From assembly GCA_977017645.1 (NCBI GenBank), contig OZ360224.1, positions 151,156,001 through 151,220,000 of the forward strand: a stretch of 64,000 bases of DNA, in the 5' to 3' direction. This document shows, piece after piece, positions 1,475 through 23,086 of this stretch. Source of the stretch: Torpedo marmorata (Eukaryota). The translations under genes were made by a program, and so were the position numbers. Within the stretch, counting starts at the first letter, position 1. Each line of letters starts with the position of its first letter. The notes under the pieces were generated by a model. That model was not told the DNA's origin. It made no database searches and saw only the letters and a list, made by a program, of their open reading frames with translations.

Positions 1475-2853
1475 CAAGTCCTTATCCTTTTATCCAAAAT
1501 CCTTGGGACCGGACACTTTTCGGAATTCGCATTTTTTCGGATTATAGAATTATTTTAATGGTGGTACTTTTAAATACCGTATATTTTGGCGTATAAGTCG
1601 ACCGGCAGATAAGTCGACCCCCCTTTTTCAGCCTCATTTTAATGGTTTTATAGTATATCCGGCGTATAAGTCGACCCCAAAAAATCGCGATGCCTGACAT
1701 GTTGCGCATTGACCGGCGTATAAGTCGACCCCCAATTTTCAGGCTGTCTGGGCCTCCCAGCAACAACCCAAAATTTGTTACAACATCCCAATCGCCAAGT
1801 AACAAAGCTGTAAATTAAGCAAGTACCGGTAAGTAAAAAAACAGTAAAAAAAACCTTTGCTTCTGGCCGGGAAGATGCAGGTGCGGCGACGTCTTTCTCC
1901 TGAGCAGGTGCGGCGACGTCTTTCTCCCGAGCAGGAGCGGCGACGTCTTTCTCCCGAGCAGGAGCGGCGACGTCTTTCTCCCGAGCAGGAGCGGGGAGCT
2001 CGTTCTCCCGGGCAGGAGCGGGGAGCTCGTTCTCCCGGGCAGGAGCGGGGAGCTCGTTCTCCCGGGCAGGAGCGGGGAGCTCGTTCTCCCGGGTAGGAGC
2101 GGGGAGCTCGTTCTCTTGGGTAGGAGCGGTGACCTCGGGCTCTACAATTGTAGAATGTCTGGGTGGTTTATGGCGGCGCCCGGCGGTGGGGAGGTGTCGG
2201 GGAGCAGCGGCGCCGGCGGTGGGGAGGTGCTTCCAGGGTCAACCTATACGCCGAATCGTGTTTTCAGGGGTCGACTTATACGCCGAATCATGTTTTAAGG
2301 GGTCGACTTATACGCCGAATCGGCGTGAACTTGATTTTGAGCTGATTTTAAGGTCTCAAAAGTATATCCGGCGTATAAGTCGACCCCCGTTTTTTCAGAC
2401 ATTTTTGAGGGTCTCAAGGGTCGACTTATACGCCGAAATATATGGTAATTGCACAAAACAAAGACATACTCCAACTAGAAGGGTTTCTGGACGACGGCGT
2501 TGGATGGTGGAGGGTTGCGGCGGCGCTGGATTGGGGGGGTTGCGGTGGCGCTGGACGGGGGTGTTCCCGGTGGCGCTGGACGGGGTTGTTCGTAGCGACG
2601 CTGGACGGTGGGTGTTCGCGGCAGCGCTGAACAAGGGGGGTTCGCGGCGGTGCTGGACGGGAGGGTTGGTGGTAAATAAAGTGAGATAAAGATGCACCAT
2701 AAAATTACTAGCATACTTTTTATTTTTAAGTAAAACATATAGTAAAACTTCAAACATTAACTGGCTCAAACTAAGCTGAACATCTGAAAATATACTGGAA
2801 AAAATGTTCGGTTTTCAGGTTTTCGGAATTTCGGATAAAAGGATAAGCACCTG
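1475..2853. mobile_element. Tigger-like (pogo) MITE hosting a Passer MITE
   Basis: TA-flanked TIRs caagtccttatccttttatcc / ggataaaaggataagcacctg; internal ~25-bp G-rich repeat at 2490-2670. Confidence 0.75.
1577..2445 (+). mobile_element. Non-autonomous Passer-family element, copy 1
   Basis: TA TSD; TIR ccgtatatt(t/c)ggcgtataagtcgac shared with the autonomous element; about 9-10 units of the 27-bp repeat. Confidence 0.9.
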
Positions 2854-7132: not shown

Positions 7133-7154
7133 CCGTATTTTTTTTTATTAAATA

Positions 7155-8617
7155 CCGTATATTTCGGCGTATAAGTCGACCCTTGAAACCCTCAAAAATG
7201 TCTCAAAAAACGGGGGTCGACTTATACGCCGGATATACTTTTGAGACCTTAAAATCAGCTCAAAATCGAGTTCACGCCGATTCGGCGTATAAGTCGACCC
7301 CTGAAAACACGATTCGGCGTATAGGTCGACCCCTGAAAACACGATTCGGCGTATAGGTCGACCCTGGAAGCGCCTCCCCACTGCCGGCGCCGCCGCTCCC
7401 CGACACCTCCCCACCGCCGGGCGCCGCCATAAACCACCCACACATTCTACAATTGTAGAGCCCGAGGTCCCCGCTCCTGCCTGGGAGAACGAGCTCCCCG
7501 CTCCTGCCCAGGAGAACAAGCTCCCCGCTCCTGCTCGGGAGAACGAGCTCCCCGCTCCTGCTCGGGAGAACGAGCTCCCCGCTCCTGCTCGGGAGAACGA
7601 GCTCCCCGCTCCTGCCTGGGAGATCGAGCTCCCCGCTCCTGCCTGGGAGAACGAGCTCCCCGCTCCTGCTCGGGAGAACGAGCTCCCCGCTACTGCTCGG
7701 GAGATCGAGCACCCCGCTCCTGCCCGGGAGATCGAGCTCCCCGCTCCTGCTCGGGAGAACGAGCTCCCCGCTACTGCTCGGGAGATCGAGCTCCCCGCTC
7801 CTGCCCGGGAGATCGAGCTCCCCGCTCCTGCTCGGGTGAACGAGCTCCCCGCTACTGCTCGGGAGATCGAGCACCCCGCTACTGCCTGGGAGAACGAGCT
7901 CCCCGCTCCTGCCTGGGAGAACGAGCTCCCGCTACTGCTTGGGAGATCGAGCACCCCGCTCCTGCCCGGGAGAACGAGCTCCCCGCTCCTGCCCGGGAGA
8001 ACGAGCTCCCCGCTACTGCTCGGGAGAACGAGCTCCCCGCTCCTGCCTGGGAGAACGAGCTCCCCGCTACTGCCTGGGAGAACGAGCTCCCCGCTACTGC
8101 CTGGGAGAACGAGCTCCCCGCTACTGCCTGGGAGAACGAGCTCCCCGCTACTGCCTGGGAGAACGAGCTCCCCGCTCCTGCTCGGGAGAACGAGCTCCCC
8201 GCTCCTGCTCGGGAGAACGAGCTCCCCACTACTGCCTGGGAGAACGAGCTCCCCGCTCCTGCCTGGGAGAACGAGCTCCCCGCTCCTGCCTGGGAGAACG
8301 AGCTCCCCGTTCCTGCCTGGGAGAACGAGCTCCCCGCTACTGCTCGGGAGAATGAGTCCCCGCTCCTGCTCGGGAGAAAGACGTCGCCGCACCTGCATCT
8401 TCCCGGCCAGAAGCAAAGGTTTATTTTACTGTTTTTTTTACTTACCGGTACTTGCTTAATTTACAGTCGACTTATACGCCGGTCAATGCGCAACATCTCA
8501 GGCATCGAGATTTTTGGGGTCGACTTATACGCCGGATATACCATAAAACCATTAAAATGAGGCTGAAAAAGGGGGGTCGACTTATACGCCGGTCGACTTA
8601 TACGCCGAAATATACGG
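7155..8617 (-). mobile_element. Non-autonomous Passer-family element, copy 2 (expanded minisatellite)
   Basis: Perfect TIRs and TA TSD; about 34 units of the 27-bp repeat at 7465-8400. Confidence 0.92.
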
Positions 8618-8962
8618 TATTTTATTTAAAATTTTAAATCACAAAATACAAAGAATAAAATATAAAATTATCAAAAATACTTGTGGTACATTGTCACCCC
8701 CCCCCCCACCCTCCCCTCCCCAACCCTCCCAACCCCACTAATCTAATAAAATAGTTAAAAAAAAGGAAGAACTAGAAAAGAAAAAGATATGGTAAGGAGA
8801 ATGTCAATCTAATAAATACATCTATAAACTAATTCTATTATGGAGGTTAGGTAGCCAGTAGATCCAATGTCCAGAGATCTTCAAATCCTTTAGCCAACAA
8901 CTTTCATATAAGGGCTCCATATTTTTAAAAAGAAATAATATTTATTCCGTAAGTTATAAGTA

Positions 8963-11088
8963 CCGTATATTTCGGCGTATAAGTCGACCCTTGAAACCCT
9001 CAAAAATGTCTCAAAAAACGGGGGTCGACTTATACGCCGGATATACTTTTGAGACCTTAAATTCAGCTCAAAATCGAGTTCACGCCGATCCGGCGTATGT
9101 CGACCCCTGAAAACACGATTCGGCGTATAAGTCGACCCCTGAAAACACGATTCGGCGTATAAGTCGACCCCTGAAAACACGATTCGGCGTATAAGTCGAC
9201 CCCTGAAAAACCAAAAAAAAACCCGACTGCAACAAATTTTCATTGACATTTTAATTGAAAACAACAAGACATTTAGAACCCTTCAAAATCACTTTCGCTA
9301 TCATCGTCTGAGGCAAAGATCTCGGCAAGCACATCCGGGGTCTCACTGTTTAAACAGTCATCGTACGGGTCCCAGTCTGTATCTGATGAGGTGGCTTCAG
9401 CTTCGTCGTCAGTGTCCCACAATAAATCATCTTCCGTACCATCAATTGCACAAGAGATACCGCACTTTTTTAAAGATTTTATTATAGTCTCTACTTTCAC
9501 TTTGTCCCATGCCTTGAGCACGAAGTCACACAGCACATCAAGCGATACAGCACGCATTGCCCCGCCTTTTGTAAATGATTTTTCTGCACTCGTCATCCAT
9601 GTATTCCACTCTTCACGCACGTGGTCTTTGAATGGCTTGTTCAAGCAGACATCGAGAGGTTGCAATATAGACGTCAAACCACCCGGGATAACCGCCATGT
9701 GAGTATTATGTTGTGCTAATGTACTTTTAGTCTTCTCAGTTAAGTGGCTACGAAACATATCCCAGACCAGCAAACTCCGTTCCTTGCGTAAACCGCCTGG
9801 CCGCCTGTTCCACACATTGTCTATCCATAGTTTTACACCATTTTCATCCATCCATCCTTTTTCATGAAAATGTACAAAAATACCTGCTGGGAAATTTATT
9901 TTAGGTTTAAGTTTGCGCTTGAAAATTACCATGGGTCTTAACTTTGTCCCGTCGGCCATGCACGATAACACCACAGTAAACCTGGTCCTTTCATGTCCTG
10001 TACTCCTGGTTTGCACAGTTTTCACACCTTTCCATTCCACTGTTCTATTGCCTATCATGTCAAAATTCATGGGGGTTTCGTCCATGTTTCCAATATTTGC
10101 CAATGCAAACTTGTGTTTCTTCCGGTTACCTAAAATAAACTGGTGAAAACTTACAACTTTATGATCAAGATCTTTTGGTAGTTTCTGAGCAATTTTAGTT
10201 TTTTGTCGTAATACCAGATTTTTCCTGTTCATAAAACGGTTGCACCAGCCTACTGAAGCTTCAAAATCATTACTGAGTTCTGGGTGCGATTTTGCCCAGT
10301 TCAGTGCAAATGCTCTTATTTTATTTCGGGTGACTATGTAGCAATCTTGCCTCTGTTCACGTACCCATGCTGCTACATGATTTTCCAACTCTGGCCAACG
10401 AGTGATTCCTCTTCTCATGGAACATTGCCTTTTTGGTATTTTTCTTAAAGTATCTTCTTTCTTCCTCCAATCTCTTACCAACTTCTCATATATATCAAAT
10501 TTTCTTGCAGCAGCACAGTTGTTGGTTTTCTTGGCCATTTCTATTACTTTCAATTTAAAACTCGCCTCATACTTTCGTCGTTTCAATTGAGCCTTCAATG
10601 GAGCCTCCATGATAACAATCACCTCCAGCCAACGCCCAGCAGCTCAATGATCGCGATCGTTGTGGGTCGACCTATACACCGGTCAACGCCCAGCAGCTCA
10701 ATGATCGCGATCGTTATGGGTCGACCTATACGCCGGTCAACGCCCAGCAGCTCAATGATCGCGATCGTTATGGGTCGATCTATACGCCAGTCAACGCCCA
10801 GCAGCTCAATGATCTCGATCGGTGTGGGTCGATCTATACGCCAGTCAACGGCCAGCAGCTCAATCATCGCGTTTTTTGAGGGTCGACCTATACGCCGGTC
10901 AACGCCCAGCAGCTCAATCATCGCGTTTTTTGAGGGTCGACTTATACGCCGGTCAATGCGCAACATCTCAGGCATCGCGTTTTTTGGGGGTCGACTTATA
11001 CGCCGGATATACCATAAAACCATTAAAATGAGGCTGAAAAAGGGGGGTCGACTTATCTGCCGGTCGACTTATACGCCGAAATATACGG
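8963..11088 (-). mobile_element. Autonomous pogo-superfamily (Passer/POGK-like, DD35D) DNA transposon
   Basis: Perfect TIR ccgtatatttcggcgtataagtcgacc; TA duplication inside L1 ORF2 (EKIT|YNLR); single intact transposase ORF. Confidence 0.93.
9273..10610 (-). CDS. Pogo/Passer DD35D transposase (Brinker-type DBD, CENP-B-type HTH, DDE_1), 445 aa from the ATG
   Basis: YEASFKLKVI...AAARKF; FEASVGWCNRFM; NMDET / LVWD / QPLD with 35 residues between the second and third D; no stops. Confidence 0.92.
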   Translation of the reverse strand: MEAPLKAQLKRRKYEASFKLKVIEMAKKTNNCAAARKFDIYEKLVRDWRKKEDTLRKIPKRQCSMRRGITRWPELENHVAAWVREQRQDCYIVTRNKIRAFALNWAKSHPELSNDFEASVGWCNRFMNRKNLVLRQKTKIAQKLPKDLDHKVVSFHQFILGNRKKHKFALANIGNMDETPMNFDMIGNRTVEWKGVKTVQTRSTGHERTRFTVVLSCMADGTKLRPMVIFKRKLKPKINFPAGIFVHFHEKGWMDENGVKLWIDNVWNRRPGGLRKERSLLVWDMFRSHLTEKTKSTLAQHNTHMAVIPGGLTSILQPLDVCLNKPFKDHVREEWNTWMTSAEKSFTKGGAMRAVSLDVLCDFVLKAWDKVKVETIIKSLKKCGISCAIDGTEDDLLWDTDDEAEATSSDTDWDPYDDCLNSETPDVLAEIFASDDDSESDFEGF

Positions 11089-12414
11089 TAATTTTTTCAA
11101 GTGGTATACATGAACGAAGTTCTGCATGCCATCTTTCTAACCCTAAATCAACATCAGATTTCCAAGTAATAGCAATGCATTTCTTTGAAACAGCTAAAGC
11201 AATTCGCAAAAATTCTATTTGATACATATTTAATTTCATCTTAATACTAAATTTTTTAATATCTCCAAACAAAAATATCATAGGATCCATCGGGAATATA
11301 ATCTTAAATATTTTATCTAAAAATTTTTTAACTTTGAACCAAAAATCGTAGACTTTTGGACAAAACCATGTAGAATGTACAAAATAACCTTCCTCTTTAT
11401 TACATCTGAAACATAAACTTGATAATGTCGGGTTAGATTTCTTTAATTTTTTAGGTGTTAAATATAATTGATGAAAAAAATTGTATTGTACTAATCTATA
11501 TCTAACATTAATAATCTTCGTCATACTTAATTTACATAATTCTTTCCAATGATTTTCATCTATTGTTACGTTCAAATCTAATTCCCATTTTAATCTTGAT
11601 TTATGAATTCCTACTTTAGGGATTTTCCTCTGAAACAATTTATACATTTGAGAAATAAATTTGTTTACATCTCCTTTTTAACTAATAATTCTAATTCATT
11701 CTGTCTTGGTAAAATCAAAGCATAACCTAATTTCTCAATCAGAAAAGCTCTAATTTGATAATAAGCAAAAAGTGTATTATCTAATATATTAAATTTATCT
11801 TTCATTCTTTGAAAAGTAATAAATTTCCCAGCTTCAAAACAATCATTTATTTTCTTAATTCCTTTTTGAAACCAAATTTTAAATAATTGATTATTAATAG
11901 TAAATGGAATAAGTCCATTTTGATATAAAGGCATTCTTGAAGAAATCAATCCTTTTCCTCCTATTTCCTTATCCGTCTTATTCCATATTTCTAACAAATG
12001 TTTAAGAATAGGAGAATTTTTCTTTCTTGTTGATATTAATTTAGAATCCCATTTATAAATAACTTCGACTTTGGAATCTTCTCCAATATTATTTAGTTCT
12101 ATTTTAATCCAAGCAGAAGATTTAGTTGAATCAAAAAATTCATTAACAAATTTTAATTGAGCTGCTTTATAATAATTTTGGAAATTAGGAAGTTGTAAAC
12201 CGCCCATTTCATAATTCCAAGTTAATTTTTCCATATCTACTCTTGTTAACTTTCCTTTCCATAAAAAATTTCTAATAATTGAATTTAAATGTTTGAAAAA
12301 TTTTTGAGGAATTTCATAAGGATTTGATTGAAAAAGATATTGAATTCTTGGAAAAACATTCATTTTAATACAATTTACTCTTCCCATTAAAGTTATAGGT
12401 AAATCTTAAAAGTA

Positions 12415-16073: not shown

Positions 16074-16217
16074 GAAAGGGTTAAAACTTCTTCTGCAGAA
16101 AATGTTATATTAACAAAGGAACACTAGTCAAATAATATAATCTGAAACTGCAGTGTTTCTCACATATCAACTTTCAAAATAAATCTGCATGGGCAACTCA
16201 ACCATAATTTTAATGTA

Positions 16218-17275
16218 CCGTATATTTCGGCGTATAAGTCGACCGGCAGATAAGTCGATCCCCCTTTTTCAGCCTCATTTTAATGGTTTTATGGTATATC
16301 CGGCGTATAAGTCGACCCCCAAAAATCGCGATGCCTGAGATGTTGCGCATTGACCGGCGTATAAGTCGACCCCCAATTTTCAGGCTGTCTGGGCCTCCCA
16401 GCAACAACCCAAAATTTGTTACAACATCCCAATCGCCAAGTAACAAAGCTGTAAATTAAGCAAGTACCGGTAAGTAAAAAAACCAGTAAAAAAAACCTTT
16501 GCTTCTGGCCGGGAAGATGCAGGTGCGGCGACGTCTTTCTCCTGAGCAGTAGCGGGGAGCTCGTTCTCCCGAGCAGGAGCGGGGACGTCTTTCTCCCGAG
16601 CAGGAGCGGGGAGCTCGTTCTCCCGGGTAGTAGCGGGGAGCTCGTTCTCCCGAGCAGGAGCGGGGACGTCTTTCTCCCGAGCAGGAGCGGGGAGCTCGTT
16701 CTCCCGAGTAGGAGCGGGGAGGTCTTTCTCCCGAGTAGGAGCGGAGACGTCTTTCTCCCGGGCAGGAGCGGGGAGCTCGTTCTCCCGAGTAGGAGCGGGG
16801 AGGTCGTTCTCCCGGGCAGGAGCGGGGAGCTCGTTCTCCCGAGCAGGAGCGGGGACGTCGTTCTCCCGGGCAGGAGCGGGGACGTCGTTCTCCCGAGCAG
16901 GAGCGGTGAGCTCGTTCTCCCGAGCAGGAGCGGGGACGTCTTTCTCCCGGGTAGGAGCGGGGACCTCGGGCTCTACAATTGTAGAATGTCTGGGTGGTTT
17001 ATGGCGGCGCCCGGCGGTGGGGAGGTGTCGGGGAGCGGCGGTGCCGGTGGTGGGGAGGCGCTTCCAGGGTCGACCTATACGCCGAATCGTGTTTTCAGGG
17101 GTCGACTTATACGCCGAATCGTGTTTTCAGGGGTCGACTTATACGCCAAATCGGCGTGAACTCGATTTTGAGCTGATTTTAAGGTCTCAAAAGTATATCC
17201 GGCGTATAAGTCGACCCCGTTTTTTGAGACATTTTTGAGGGTTTCAAGGGTCGACTTATACGCCGAAATATACGG
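16218..17275 (+). mobile_element. Non-autonomous Passer-family element, copy 3
   Basis: Perfect TIRs and TA TSD; about 16 units of the 27-bp repeat. Confidence 0.92.
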
Positions 17276-17339
17276 TAAGTATTCATAACAGCATCTTCCC
17301 TTTCTGTAAAGATGATAGTTCTAACTTGTATGCTGAGTC

Positions 17340-19285: not shown

Positions 19286-19671
19286 TTCCAATCAAAACAT
19301 AAAACCAGATCACTACTGATCCCGGTACAAATAGTTTCAAATTCACATTCTCCGTTTTCAGGTATAGATGGAATTTCAACAGTACATGTTAGATGAGGAT
19401 TTCATTTTCTTTAATATTAACATTTCAAGCTGGCTCAGGACAAAACAGCTAAAAAATCAATACTGTAAAGCACTCAGAAAAAAGTACAATGGTTTTTCTG
19501 TTTTATCTAACACTATTAGAGATGTAGCAACATTGTAAATGCATTGTGAAACAGTTCATACATAAATTAAGTCTAGCAAATTCTTGCCTCCTCCCCAAAG
19601 TTGCTTTAAAAAATACCCAAATGTTTAAAGGCTGAGTACAAGTTGCTGCAGCAGAATTCACAATTCCTTAC

Positions 19672-19760
19672 CTGTGAATTTGATCTTGTCTGCTTGAACG
19701 AACTGGCGCCAGACCATCAATTTCATCAAAAAAAATGATGGACGGTCGCATTAAGTAAGC
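19672..19760 (-). CDS. ATAD2B: ATAD2B coding exon with Walker B
   Basis: tgcag/gtaagg; AYLMRPSIIFFDEIDGLAPVRSSRQDQIH (AYLMRP is the ATAD2B-type form). Confidence 0.96.
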
Positions 19761-19863
19761 CTGCAAAAGAACAAATTTTGAACTATGCCTACAAATTATA
19801 TTTAAGAATAAGAATTGTGCATACAGTAATAATGGGAAACACGTTGCCACGATTTTTATTTAC

Positions 19864-20038
19864 CTGATCAAACAACAGTCTGAGTTGGCGTTCAGACTCT
19901 CCTACCCACTTGCTAAGACAATCTGCACCTTTCCGCATAAAGAACGAAACCTTCTTGTCTCCTACGCTGCATTCATTCGCCAGGGCTCTTGCTACCAAGG
20001 TTTTGCCTGTTCCAGGAGGTCCATAGAATAAACAACCC
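19864..20038 (-). CDS. ATAD2B: ATAD2B coding exon with Walker A
   Basis: tatag/gtaaat; GCLFYGPPGTGKTLVARALANECSVGDKKVSFFMRKGADCLSKWVGESERQLRLLFDQ. Confidence 0.96.
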
Positions 20039-20573
20039 CTATATCATTCAACAGGAATGAAATTTACAAAATGACATAATTTACATATGTTTTAATTATT
20101 TGTGCACAACTTTTAAATTCCCAAGCGTAAGCATTTCCTATTCCTCCTCTTGTCCAGACCTATTGCAATTATAAACAAATCAAGCAGGCCTAAAATTAAT
20201 GTTAAATCCCAAAGATGGTGTAGAATCTCCTAATGACATGTCTGGGTCTCCAAGGTAGGTTTCAATTCCAGAACATTTTATCTTGGTCTGAAAGTGCAAT
20301 CATTGAACTAAAGTCAACATGTGACTTAATAATTATATTTCTATCACTTTAAAAGAAAACCTTAATATACACTATGTAAAATATCACATCTGGAAGGATT
20401 AACAAACATACCAGGACAGACCATTTCACACAAATAGCTATGATTTCCAGCAAGAAAATAAATAAATCTCTTTTAATTTAAAATATAAATGACTATTTTA
20501 AACAATTATACTTTACCTATAAAAATATGATACTTCAATTCCGTTGAAAAAACAAATATGCACTAAATAAATA

Positions 20574-21627
20574 CCGTATATTTCAGTGTATAAGTCGACT
20601 CGCGGATAAGTCGACCCCCCTTTTCAGCCTCATTTTAATGGTTTTAATGTATATCCGGCGTATAAGTCGACCCCCAATTTTTGGGCTGTCTGGGCCTCCT
20701 AGCAACAACCCAAGATTTGTTACAACACCCCAATCGCCAAGTAACAAAGCTGTAAATTAAGCAAGTAAGTAAAAAAAACAGTAAAAAAAACCTTTGCTTC
20801 TGGCCGGGAAGATGCCAAACGGAGCTGGATTCAAGTCTCCAAGTCGGCGACTCCATTCTCAAAATCGGGTGCGGTGCCGTCCGCATCAAAGAAGTCACCT
20901 CGCTGCCCAAGTGTGCTCGGTGCAGGAACCACGGCTACGTGTCGGCTCCCGGGCAGGAGCAGGGACCTCGGGCCCCCGGGCAGGAGTGGCGACCTCGTTC
21001 TCCCGGGCAGGAGCGGCGACCTCGTTCTCCCGGGCAGGAGCAGCGACCTCGTTCTCCCGAGCAGGAGCGACGACCTCGTTCTCCCGGGCAGAAGCGGCGA
21101 CCTCGTTCTCCTCAGCAGAAGCGGCGACCTCGGCTTACGTGGCAGGAGCGGTGACCTCGTTCTCCCGGCAGGAGCGCGAACGGACTCGGACTACGTGGCA
21201 GGAACGGCAACCTCACCCTACCGGCAGGAGCCTCGGCTTACCGGGCAGGAGCGGCGACCTCAGGCTCCCGGGTAGGAGTAGGGACCTCGGGCTCTACAAT
21301 TGTAGAATGTCTGGGTGGTTTATGGCGGCGCCCGACAGTGGGGAGGTGTCGGGGAGCGGCGGCGCCAGCGGTGGGGAGGTGCTTCCAGGTTCAACCTATA
21401 CGCCGAATCGGATTTTCATAGGTCGACTTATACGCCGAATCGGGTTTTCAAGGGACGACTTATACGCCGAATCGGGTTTTCAAGGGTTGACATACGCCGA
21501 ATCGGCATGGAGCAGTTTTTGAGCTGATTTTAAGGTCTCAAAAGTATATCCGGCGAATCAGTCGACCCCCGTTTTTTGAGAAATTTTTGAGGGTTTCAAG
21601 ACTCGACTTATACGCCGAAATATACGG
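20574..21627 (+). mobile_element. Non-autonomous Passer-family element, copy 4 (divergent subfamily)
   Basis: Near-identical TIRs and TA TSD; diverged repeat array plus extra internal sequence. Confidence 0.88.
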
Positions 21628-22970
21628 TAAATATAAAAAGAGACTAACATTATTTCAACTGGACTTTGTTTTGGAATGTGAAATGTGAACGTTGTAATTT
21701 TTTGATTGTGATTTTGTGAAGCACTTTGTGAAGCCTTTTTCACAATAAAAATATCATACAAATGCAATATGTTGCCGACATTACTGTTAACAAAAGCAGT
21801 CAGATCTCCTTTATATAATCACCAGGAAAACTGAATAACTGATAACACAAACAGCATTTGAATTAGTCCTACTTTCATGTTCTGGTATGTGTATTGTCAA
21901 CTGAAACACTTCTGTTTGAACATACATTATACCTCAAGTCTGAATCGGAATCGAAATCCGAACACCACAGATAACATCCAGTCAATCATATTAAAACAAA
22001 CACAGGCTGGAAAACAACAGACATATTTCTGAACATTTAGGTACTAAAAGAAAGCTAACATCTACTAATAACTTACCAATCTGAGGAACCAGAATTTTTG
22101 CATAGTATAAAATAAATATTTATTTAACCTAATACAATAAATTTTTTGTGAAACGTCATTGACGTACAATTTGATAAAACAGCGTCATTAGCATGCTCAG
22201 TGACATCTCTTATTGTTATGCAGTACCACAAAGATTAATCTACAGTTGTGCACAAAGGTGCTGGAGTAATTCAACAGGTCATGCAGCATCCATAGAAAGC
22301 AAAAGGCAGTTGATATTTCGGACCTTCTTCAGGAGTCCTCTACTTGTGTACTGCATTAGACCCCAGCATCTGCAAATTTCTTGTTTACCTTCATTTGTCT
22401 GTCATCCAGCAGCCAACATGTTGCACAACATGTTGACAAACACAAGAAGTCACCTTAACAGGACGACTTTAATGGAAAGTTAATGTAGGACAGAACCAGT
22501 CTCTTATAACGCAAACAGAAAAGGCTGGTTATCAGAAATTGTTAAATTCAACACCTGGTCCCGAGGGTTACAATGCCCCAAGATGGAATACGAGTTGCTG
22601 TGACATGAGCCCAAAATGGGTTTCATTGGAACAGCAATGGAAGCCAAAGAGGATTCAGAAAGGGATGAATTAAAATTGCGGGCAACTGAAAGCATAATGA
22701 ATGGAGGTGTTCTGCAAACCAGTCACCTGATCTGTGTATGGCTTCTTCAGTGTAGAGGAGGCCACCAAATGCAACATGCTAAACTGGAAGAAGAGCAAAC
22801 ATATTGTTGTTACAGCTGGTCATGGATAATAAAAATGATTGCACAATCCTTTCCTGGACAGGCCCAAGATAGTTGGGTGAACGTGAAGAAGCTCCTTCAT
22901 TATCAACCTCAGATTATGCCTGGTTTATGGAAAGGCCAACCTGTCAAATTTCTAACATTTAAAACACTAC

Positions 22971-23086
22971 CTTGGTGGTTGAATCTTGAATCGTTCAAAT
23001 ACTTCAGGATAGAGTAGAGGAAAAACGACCATTTCTTTAAGAGCTTGAATATGTTGGCTTAGCCCACCGACACTATCAAACCGCAC
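22971..23086 (-). CDS. ATAD2B: ATAD2B coding exon, start of AAA domain 1
   Basis: ttag/gtagtg; VRFDSVGGLSQHIQALKEMVVFPLLYPEVFERFKIQPPR (read manually, absent from the ORF track). Confidence 0.95.

Follow-up and report, generated by a model that had tools for sequence, protein, structure and literature searches.

The window analyzed here, a 64,000-nucleotide stretch of the Torpedo marmorata genome, contains a full-length Passer element with an intact transposase gene, together with non-autonomous members of the same family and exons of a host gene (Table 1). The full-length element (8961-11090) is inserted at a TA within the 3′ end of an L1-type LINE, the reading frame of which resumes on either side of it. 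All three domains of the transposase P0001 (BrkDBD, HTH_Tnp_Tc5, and DDE_1) score above the Pfam cut-off, and the catalytic triad, as read from the translation, is D177/D284/D320, with 35 residues separating the last two (DD35D). In the available text of two papers, Passer is described as combining BrkDBD, an HTH, and DD35D in a protein of 400-500 aa, with short terminal inverted repeats (TIRs) and a TA duplication (PMC9976928, PMC7386202); the length, domains, DD35D triad, short TIRs, and TA duplication found here all agree with that description, and by these published features the window element is a Passer (pogo superfamily, DD35D). The core word of the TIR is repeated many times in both subterminal regions (window 8961-9210 and 10620-11090), and these repeats are probably extra binding sites for the transposase.

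Table 1. Features of the window discussed in the text
Feature	Position	Strand	Remarks
Non-autonomous family member, 873 bp	1575..2447		ends 93-96% like full element
Non-autonomous family member, 1,467 bp	7153..8619		GC-rich internal tandem repeat; ends 97%
Full-length Passer element	8961..11090	-	2,130 bp counting both TA target duplications
Terminal inverted repeat, transposase-gene 3′ end	8963..8988	+	26 bp after TA
TND-interacting-type C-terminal motif	9273..9338	-	helix with L428/I431/F432, 9-residue acidic Ser linker, F442-E-G444-F445, stop
Transposase ORF P0001, 445 aa, intact	9273..10610	-	BrkDBD 11-56, HTH_Tnp_Tc5 72-135, DDE_1 209-378
Terminal inverted repeat, transposase-gene 5′ end	11063..11088	-	
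Non-autonomous family member, 1,062 bp	16216..17277		ends 97-98%
Host ATAD2-family AAA exon	19864..20037	-	best PDB match ATAD2
Older non-autonomous family member, 1,058 bp	20572..21629		ends 89-93%; next intron upstream

Five TIR-bounded family members with differing interiors lie between 1575 and 21629, and the AAA exon with further exons of the minus-strand ATAD2-family gene (near 22970-23086, 19671-19770, and about 1220-1380) bounds the two introns that hold them. The earlier note had placed five members in one intron of ATAD2B: the number and the ATAD2 family are as it described, whereas the introns are two. The gene may be the ATAD2B paralog; an Atlas look-up for this gene returned no paralog name. 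At the genome average, about 0.24 elements would be expected per 64 kb, which rules out the cluster as mere genome average; the genic rate (see below) predicts 0.62 (P 5e-4, post hoc), and because the cluster exceeds even this rate, a further cause is needed, such as a hot spot or local hopping. In the non-autonomous members, the gene is replaced by GC-rich tandem arrays with units of ~27 bp (7470-8370, 16450-17000, and 1840-2140).

The Passer family is young and amplified in this genome. Among 25,121 candidates in the 6.22-Gb assembly, 95 were scored, and all 95 are full length with 98-100% identity; 94 of these are free of stops, so that the genome holds at least 94 near-identical open copies. 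Mean divergence among thirty family copies is 0.56%. Exact matches to the terminal 28-mer number 19,439, rising to 40,047 when up to two mismatches are allowed, and the family amounts to about 20,000 elements. Each of 50 exact family ends is flanked by TA, preceded in 44 cases by an A three bases before it, which agrees with the published Passer target consensus. The high copy number and near-identity of copies point to present-day mobility. The copy in the window differs from the other 28 readable copies at four amino acid positions private to it (161, 355, 380, and 407) and may therefore be less active than the family at large.

The C terminus of the transposase is the feature on which our interpretation turns. 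The stop codon and last 21 codons of the 445-aa ORF (9273-9338, minus strand) encode the protein end VLAEIFASDDDSESDFEGF, and the ORF translation bears out the reading of the earlier note, namely, a helix, an acidic Ser linker, and a terminal FEGF. The TND-interacting motif (TIM) is defined as a helix with F/V/L/I anchors in a disordered region, an acidic Ser/Thr linker of 8-16 residues, and an optional FxGF; every known partner of LEDGF/HRP2 requires the FxGF, whereas other TNDs can do without it (PMC9987994, available text). Every sequence feature of this architecture is present in the Passer tail, as the earlier note had maintained, and the tail matches the LEDGF-binding motif of POGZ in position. 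The AlphaFold model has a moderate-confidence helix from residue 425 (block pLDDT of 68 and 60 over residues 421-440), flanked by low-confidence stretches at 403-419 and 439-445 (pLDDT under 50).

An FxGF lies within the last 40 residues in 78 of 121 proteins, comprising the query and the best 120 of its 1,303 homologs. When tails were anchored on the end of the catalytic domain (114 kept and 7 dropped for want of an anchor), 77 of the 114 contained FxGF, whereas 2000 shuffles gave 0.9 on average and 5 at most; these counts rule out a chance motif. Many of the remaining 37 tails end just before the place where the motif is expected, apparently through truncated gene models or decay, and the true number is thus probably no lower than 77. 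The other parts of the motif are similarly constrained: among the 77 FxGF homologs, the linker is 7-11 residues long in 71 (8-11 in 61 and 7 in 10), a CK2-type S/T-x-x-D/E site is present in the linker in 71, and FxGF lies at most one residue from the protein end in 62. In a 76-row alignment (A2), whose rows were picked mostly because FxGF is present, the helix Leu is found in 62 rows and the Phe in 66, and the acidic stretch upstream is variable. Aligned C termini thus show the helix-acidic-FxGF pattern kept across Passer transposases, and alike in host POGZ, as the earlier note had anticipated. Within the ray genome, the last 30 residues are identical in 28 of 29 readable copies and differ at one site in the other, which rules out the tail as a peculiarity of the window copy alone. 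The same terminal motif is shared by the lab-active stickleback Passer and the active cichlid Passer, and on the partner side, the use of FxGF is reported to be conserved in flies (10.1101/624023, available text). A second conserved spot precedes the helix (residues 414-418, window 9350-9370), where Tyr416 occurs in 58 of 76 rows and Asp418 in 59 of 76; it has no counterpart in POGZ.

POGZ provides the closest comparison. Like Passer, it has a pogo DDE domain followed at the C terminus by a helix, an acidic Ser/Thr linker, and FxGF (PDB accession numbers 6EMP and 2N3A); the two differ in that POGZ is a fixed host gene without transposition activity, whereas the Passer motif sits on a mobile, recently amplified enzyme, and in that binding of POGZ to LEDGF is proven, whereas the Passer tail is known here from sequence. 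We located the host POGZ through its zinc finger and read its last exon; the nearest relative is a catshark protein named POGZ. The host POGZ shares 28% identity with P0001 over 272 residues, and its DDE domain is followed by a terminal Leu-Phe, acidic Ser linker of 8 residues, and FYGF. This tail can be aligned with the POGZ portion of 6EMP, a LEDGF-POGZ structure (E value of 8.6e-5). Against a profile of 78 transposase tails, eight POGZ tails score 10.9-17.3 bits, and four teleost pogzb-type tails and three PSIP1 proteins score -3.3 to 1.0; in each of four POGZ tails tested, 0-1 of 500 shuffles reached the score. Two unrelated repeat ORFs among 23,117 also scored 9.9 and 12.7 bits, and BLASTP between the 40-residue tails of P0001 and POGZ returned no alignment, so the case for homology of the tails is built more on position and pattern than on score. 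In the PDB, no IBD-peptide structure was matched by the entire P0001, by its last 39 residues, or by the family profile, the host POGZ tail being the only query that did so; and POGZ and POGK were not recovered in the homolog search for longer relatives.

In a tree of 123 catalytic cores (a quick, midpoint-rooted reconstruction without named reference Passer, Tigger, or pogoR sequences), POGZ forms a single group with support of 100; its early branches have the motif, and a subgroup of 15 rows, in which the named members are teleost pogzb, lacks it. Among the transposases, the motif is scattered over deep branches; the tree holds 40 full motifs, 7 cases of FxGF only, 43 of none, and 33 tails too short to score. 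With the published derivation of POGZ from Passer (PMC9976928, PMC7386202, available text), inheritance plus losses is the simplest reading of this midpoint-rooted tree. POGZ would thus very likely have received its motif at the time it was domesticated from Passer, and the conservation of the motif throughout the family, in the same position behind the DDE domain, favors the suggestion of the earlier note that it descends from a mobile ancestor. The teleost pogzb-type proteins without the motif (P0260, P0263, P0267, and P0285), set beside the other POGZ proteins that keep it, provide a natural loss for comparison.

The candidate partners are present in the same genome, which holds PSIP1 and a second IBD gene, presumably HDGFL2. 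One exon of the host PSIP1 shows 99% identity to a named electric-ray protein; a copy of the Passer transposon, its tail intact, lies ~750 bp before an IBD exon of PSIP1 (L001:1-750; G000:C2 near 217.385 Mb). Prediction of a complex between residues 310-400 of the ray LEDGF IBD and the last 38 residues of the transposase gave a weak score of 0.38, against 0.01 for the best control, with contact agreement of 83% and a partner pLDDT of 56; in a benchmark that contained no peptides, 51 of 78 solved pairs and 2 of 108 mismatched pairs reached the mark that this prediction passes, but only 5 of these 78 solved pairs did so with a score of 0.60 or under, as did all 4 passing mismatches. Because similar complexes have already been solved, the pass may be memory and indicates likeness only; nor can such a prediction distinguish among members of the TND family. 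Taken with the motif, its conservation, and the POGZ structure, these data argue that the Passer tail is a probable ligand of LEDGF/HDGFL2.

It is also conceivable that the tail is no TND ligand at all and serves self-association or self-inhibition of the transposase on its basic DNA-binding surface, or binds an unrelated host protein, with the use of LEDGF by POGZ arising later. The weakness of the complex prediction is in keeping with this, as are the occurrence of Passers in stramenopiles, according to the available literature, and the conservation of Y416 upstream of the motif. The helix hydrophobics, linker length, Ser/Thr sites, and FxGF, however, all fit a defined motif, the homologous POGZ tail is a solved LEDGF ligand (6EMP), and the pLDDT of under 50 at the tail end of the single-chain model indicates no confident self-docking. 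We regard a function apart from TNDs as rather improbable.

A ligand of LEDGF/HDGFL2 on a transposase bears directly on where Passer inserts. The stickleback Passer is active in human cells, and its published map of 6,107 insertion sites favors genes, rises with expression, and leans to 5′ ends, promoters, and enhancers; no other transposon in the published comparison showed so strong a propensity for genes and regulatory regions (PMC9976928). A preference for regulatory regions is common to transposons without the motif as well, namely, piggyBac, Tol2, TcBuster, and ZB (PMC9976928). The available text of that paper contains no match to "tether" or "host factor" and gives the genic bias without a mechanism, and neither its main text nor that of PMC7386202, so far as available, mentions LEDGF, IBD, or integrase or describes the tail. 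The earlier note had pictured targeting to transcribed gene bodies through H3K36 methylation, a picture that fits poorly with this sole measured Passer profile, biased to 5′ ends, promoters, and enhancers. We expect the target to be active chromatin that extends from promoters to the 5′ portion of genes, and not H3K36me3 gene bodies alone.

The 5′ bias could also be explained if the tail bound a different, promoter-near TND protein, such as TFIIS, ELOA, PNUTS, MED26, or IWS1. Every TND requires the helix and the acidic linker (PMC9987994), the published Passer profile peaks at 5′ ends and promoters, and the complex prediction does not discriminate among family members. Yet FxGF, the best-kept piece of the tail, is described as special to LEDGF/HRP2 (PMC9987994), and LEDGF is itself reported at transcription start sites (TSSs; bioRxiv 2024.06.29.601340) and binds H3K36me2, a mark found near TSSs, as well as H3K36me3 (PMC10570030), all as stated in the available text of these sources. 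A TND partner other than LEDGF/HDGFL2 is, on this evidence, distinctly unlikely. The available text of PMC10570030 also reports that POGZ(1117-1410) lowered the binding of LEDGF to methylated nucleosomes in vitro, a result that counts against tethering.

We counted family ends in a genic sample of the ray genome, consisting of 156 segments of 10 kb (1.56 Mb) from 67 spans chosen in advance. Exons of PSIP1 and of SNF2, HECT, USP, and DEAD genes delimit the spans, and germline expression is assumed for these housekeeping genes; single-exon and short spans are omitted, and padding of up to 7 kb was added to about eleven spans. The sample contains 26 Passer ends versus 10.0 expected, a 2.6-fold enrichment (span bootstrap 1.27-4.19), or 15 elements versus about 5.8 expected (P about 0.001). 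Controls in the same segments were enriched too: a hAT MITE gave 15 versus 6.3 expected (2.4-fold), and two LINEs gave 44 versus 32.4 and 56 versus 38.1 (1.4-1.5-fold), although these controls were picked from words abundant in the sample, so that their enrichments lean high. The ratio of Passer to hAT enrichment is 1.09 (interval 0.48-2.37) and that of Passer to LINE enrichment 1.81 (0.87-3.12). Therefore, the gene-body enrichment anticipated in the earlier note does appear, at 2.6-fold in housekeeping-gene bodies, but since the hAT MITE is equally enriched, the genic excess of Passer need not reflect the motif.

TA density is ruled out as the cause of the genic excess (0.063 vs. 0.062, in a comparison with 80 kb of random DNA); relative to the same 80 kb, the genic segments are about 1.2-1.3-fold richer in preferred target words. 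Seven DEAD-helicase segments account for 8 of the 26 ends, versus 0.45 expected, and the HECT segments, which represent the 3′ ends of long genes, contain 4 versus 2.9 expected; this contrast, which is post hoc and small, fits a 5′ lean. A further 200 kb adjoining POGZ and a second zinc-finger gene holds one family end. The hAT-type MITE used as a control is 373 bp long with 8-bp duplications and has about 25,000 copies (e.g., L186:197-569); a search for its transposase found none.

By the mechanism that we propose, the helix and FxGF of the disordered transposase tail would occupy two pockets of the LEDGF/HDGFL2 IBD, the PWWP domain of the reader, or its partners, would keep the transposase complex on transcribed chromatin, and the tethered enzyme would insert at a nearby TA, giving more insertions in the TA sites of expressed genes. 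Phosphorylation of the linker, of the CK2 type, might tune the binding. Whether such tethering is the cause of the genic bias of Passer we consider evenly balanced. The tail might instead bind LEDGF/HDGFL2 for chromatin retention, stabilization, or donor-site repair, with the genic bias reflecting open chromatin; the equal enrichment of the hAT control and the genic or regulatory bias shared by several transposons without the motif speak for this, as do the stabilization of the FxGF partner JIL-1 by the fly LEDGF homolog JASPer (10.1101/624023, available text) and descriptions, in the accessible literature, of LEDGF and HRP2 as aiding homologous recombination. Against it, a re-tethered IBD is reported to suffice to position HIV integration (bioRxiv 2024.06.29.601340, available text), and the genic bias of Passer is the strongest among the transposons compared. 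Binding for such other purposes seems to us unlikely, if less so than the absence of any TND partner.

Two known systems help place a tether by LEDGF/HDGFL2. HIV-1 integrase, with LEDGF-HRP2, relies on the same host domain that is proposed here as the tether of a DDE-type enzyme, and both enzymes are biased to expressed genes. The integrase grips the IBD with a folded surface and not with an FxGF motif. The two profiles differ in that LEDGF-guided HIV integration is low at TSSs (bioRxiv 2024.06.29.601340, available text), whereas Passer insertions are enriched there (PMC9976928). Drosophila pogo, a precedent within the pogo superfamily, has, as Passer does, a short C-terminal host-binding motif, which in pogo is a PCNA box that binds the replication clamp, whereas the candidate partner of Passer is a chromatin reader (PMC4231638, available text).

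A broader proposal follows from joining these strands, and we place it just short of an even chance: an animal-wide transposon family would long have ridden LEDGF/HDGFL2 into active genes independently of lentiviruses, the POGZ-LEDGF link would be a leftover of this, removal of four residues would make Passer insertion more random, and IBD fusions would retarget it. Host tethers have been named for retroviruses and yeast retrotransposons and for few animal DNA transposons. A 2009 paper on POGZ and LEDGF reportedly speculated that LEDGF might serve DDE proteins more widely, and the idea may thus partly be in print already; a search of accessible full texts, with most subscription papers outside its scope, returned no paper linking the tail of a mobile pogo or Passer to LEDGF or a TND. 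The motif would readily account for the gene bias of Passer, which has so far lacked an explanation, and this account is testable with an existing human-cell tool and a published map. If true, the LEDGF-binding motif of POGZ, a neurodevelopmental disease gene, traces to a transposon targeting device, and Passer vectors gain a handle by which they could be made safer or redirected.

Lastly, the homologs include a 987-aa skink protein (P0244) in which a SCAN domain is combined with an entire Passer transposase, the terminal motif being retained; it is possibly another domestication, or a fused gene model.
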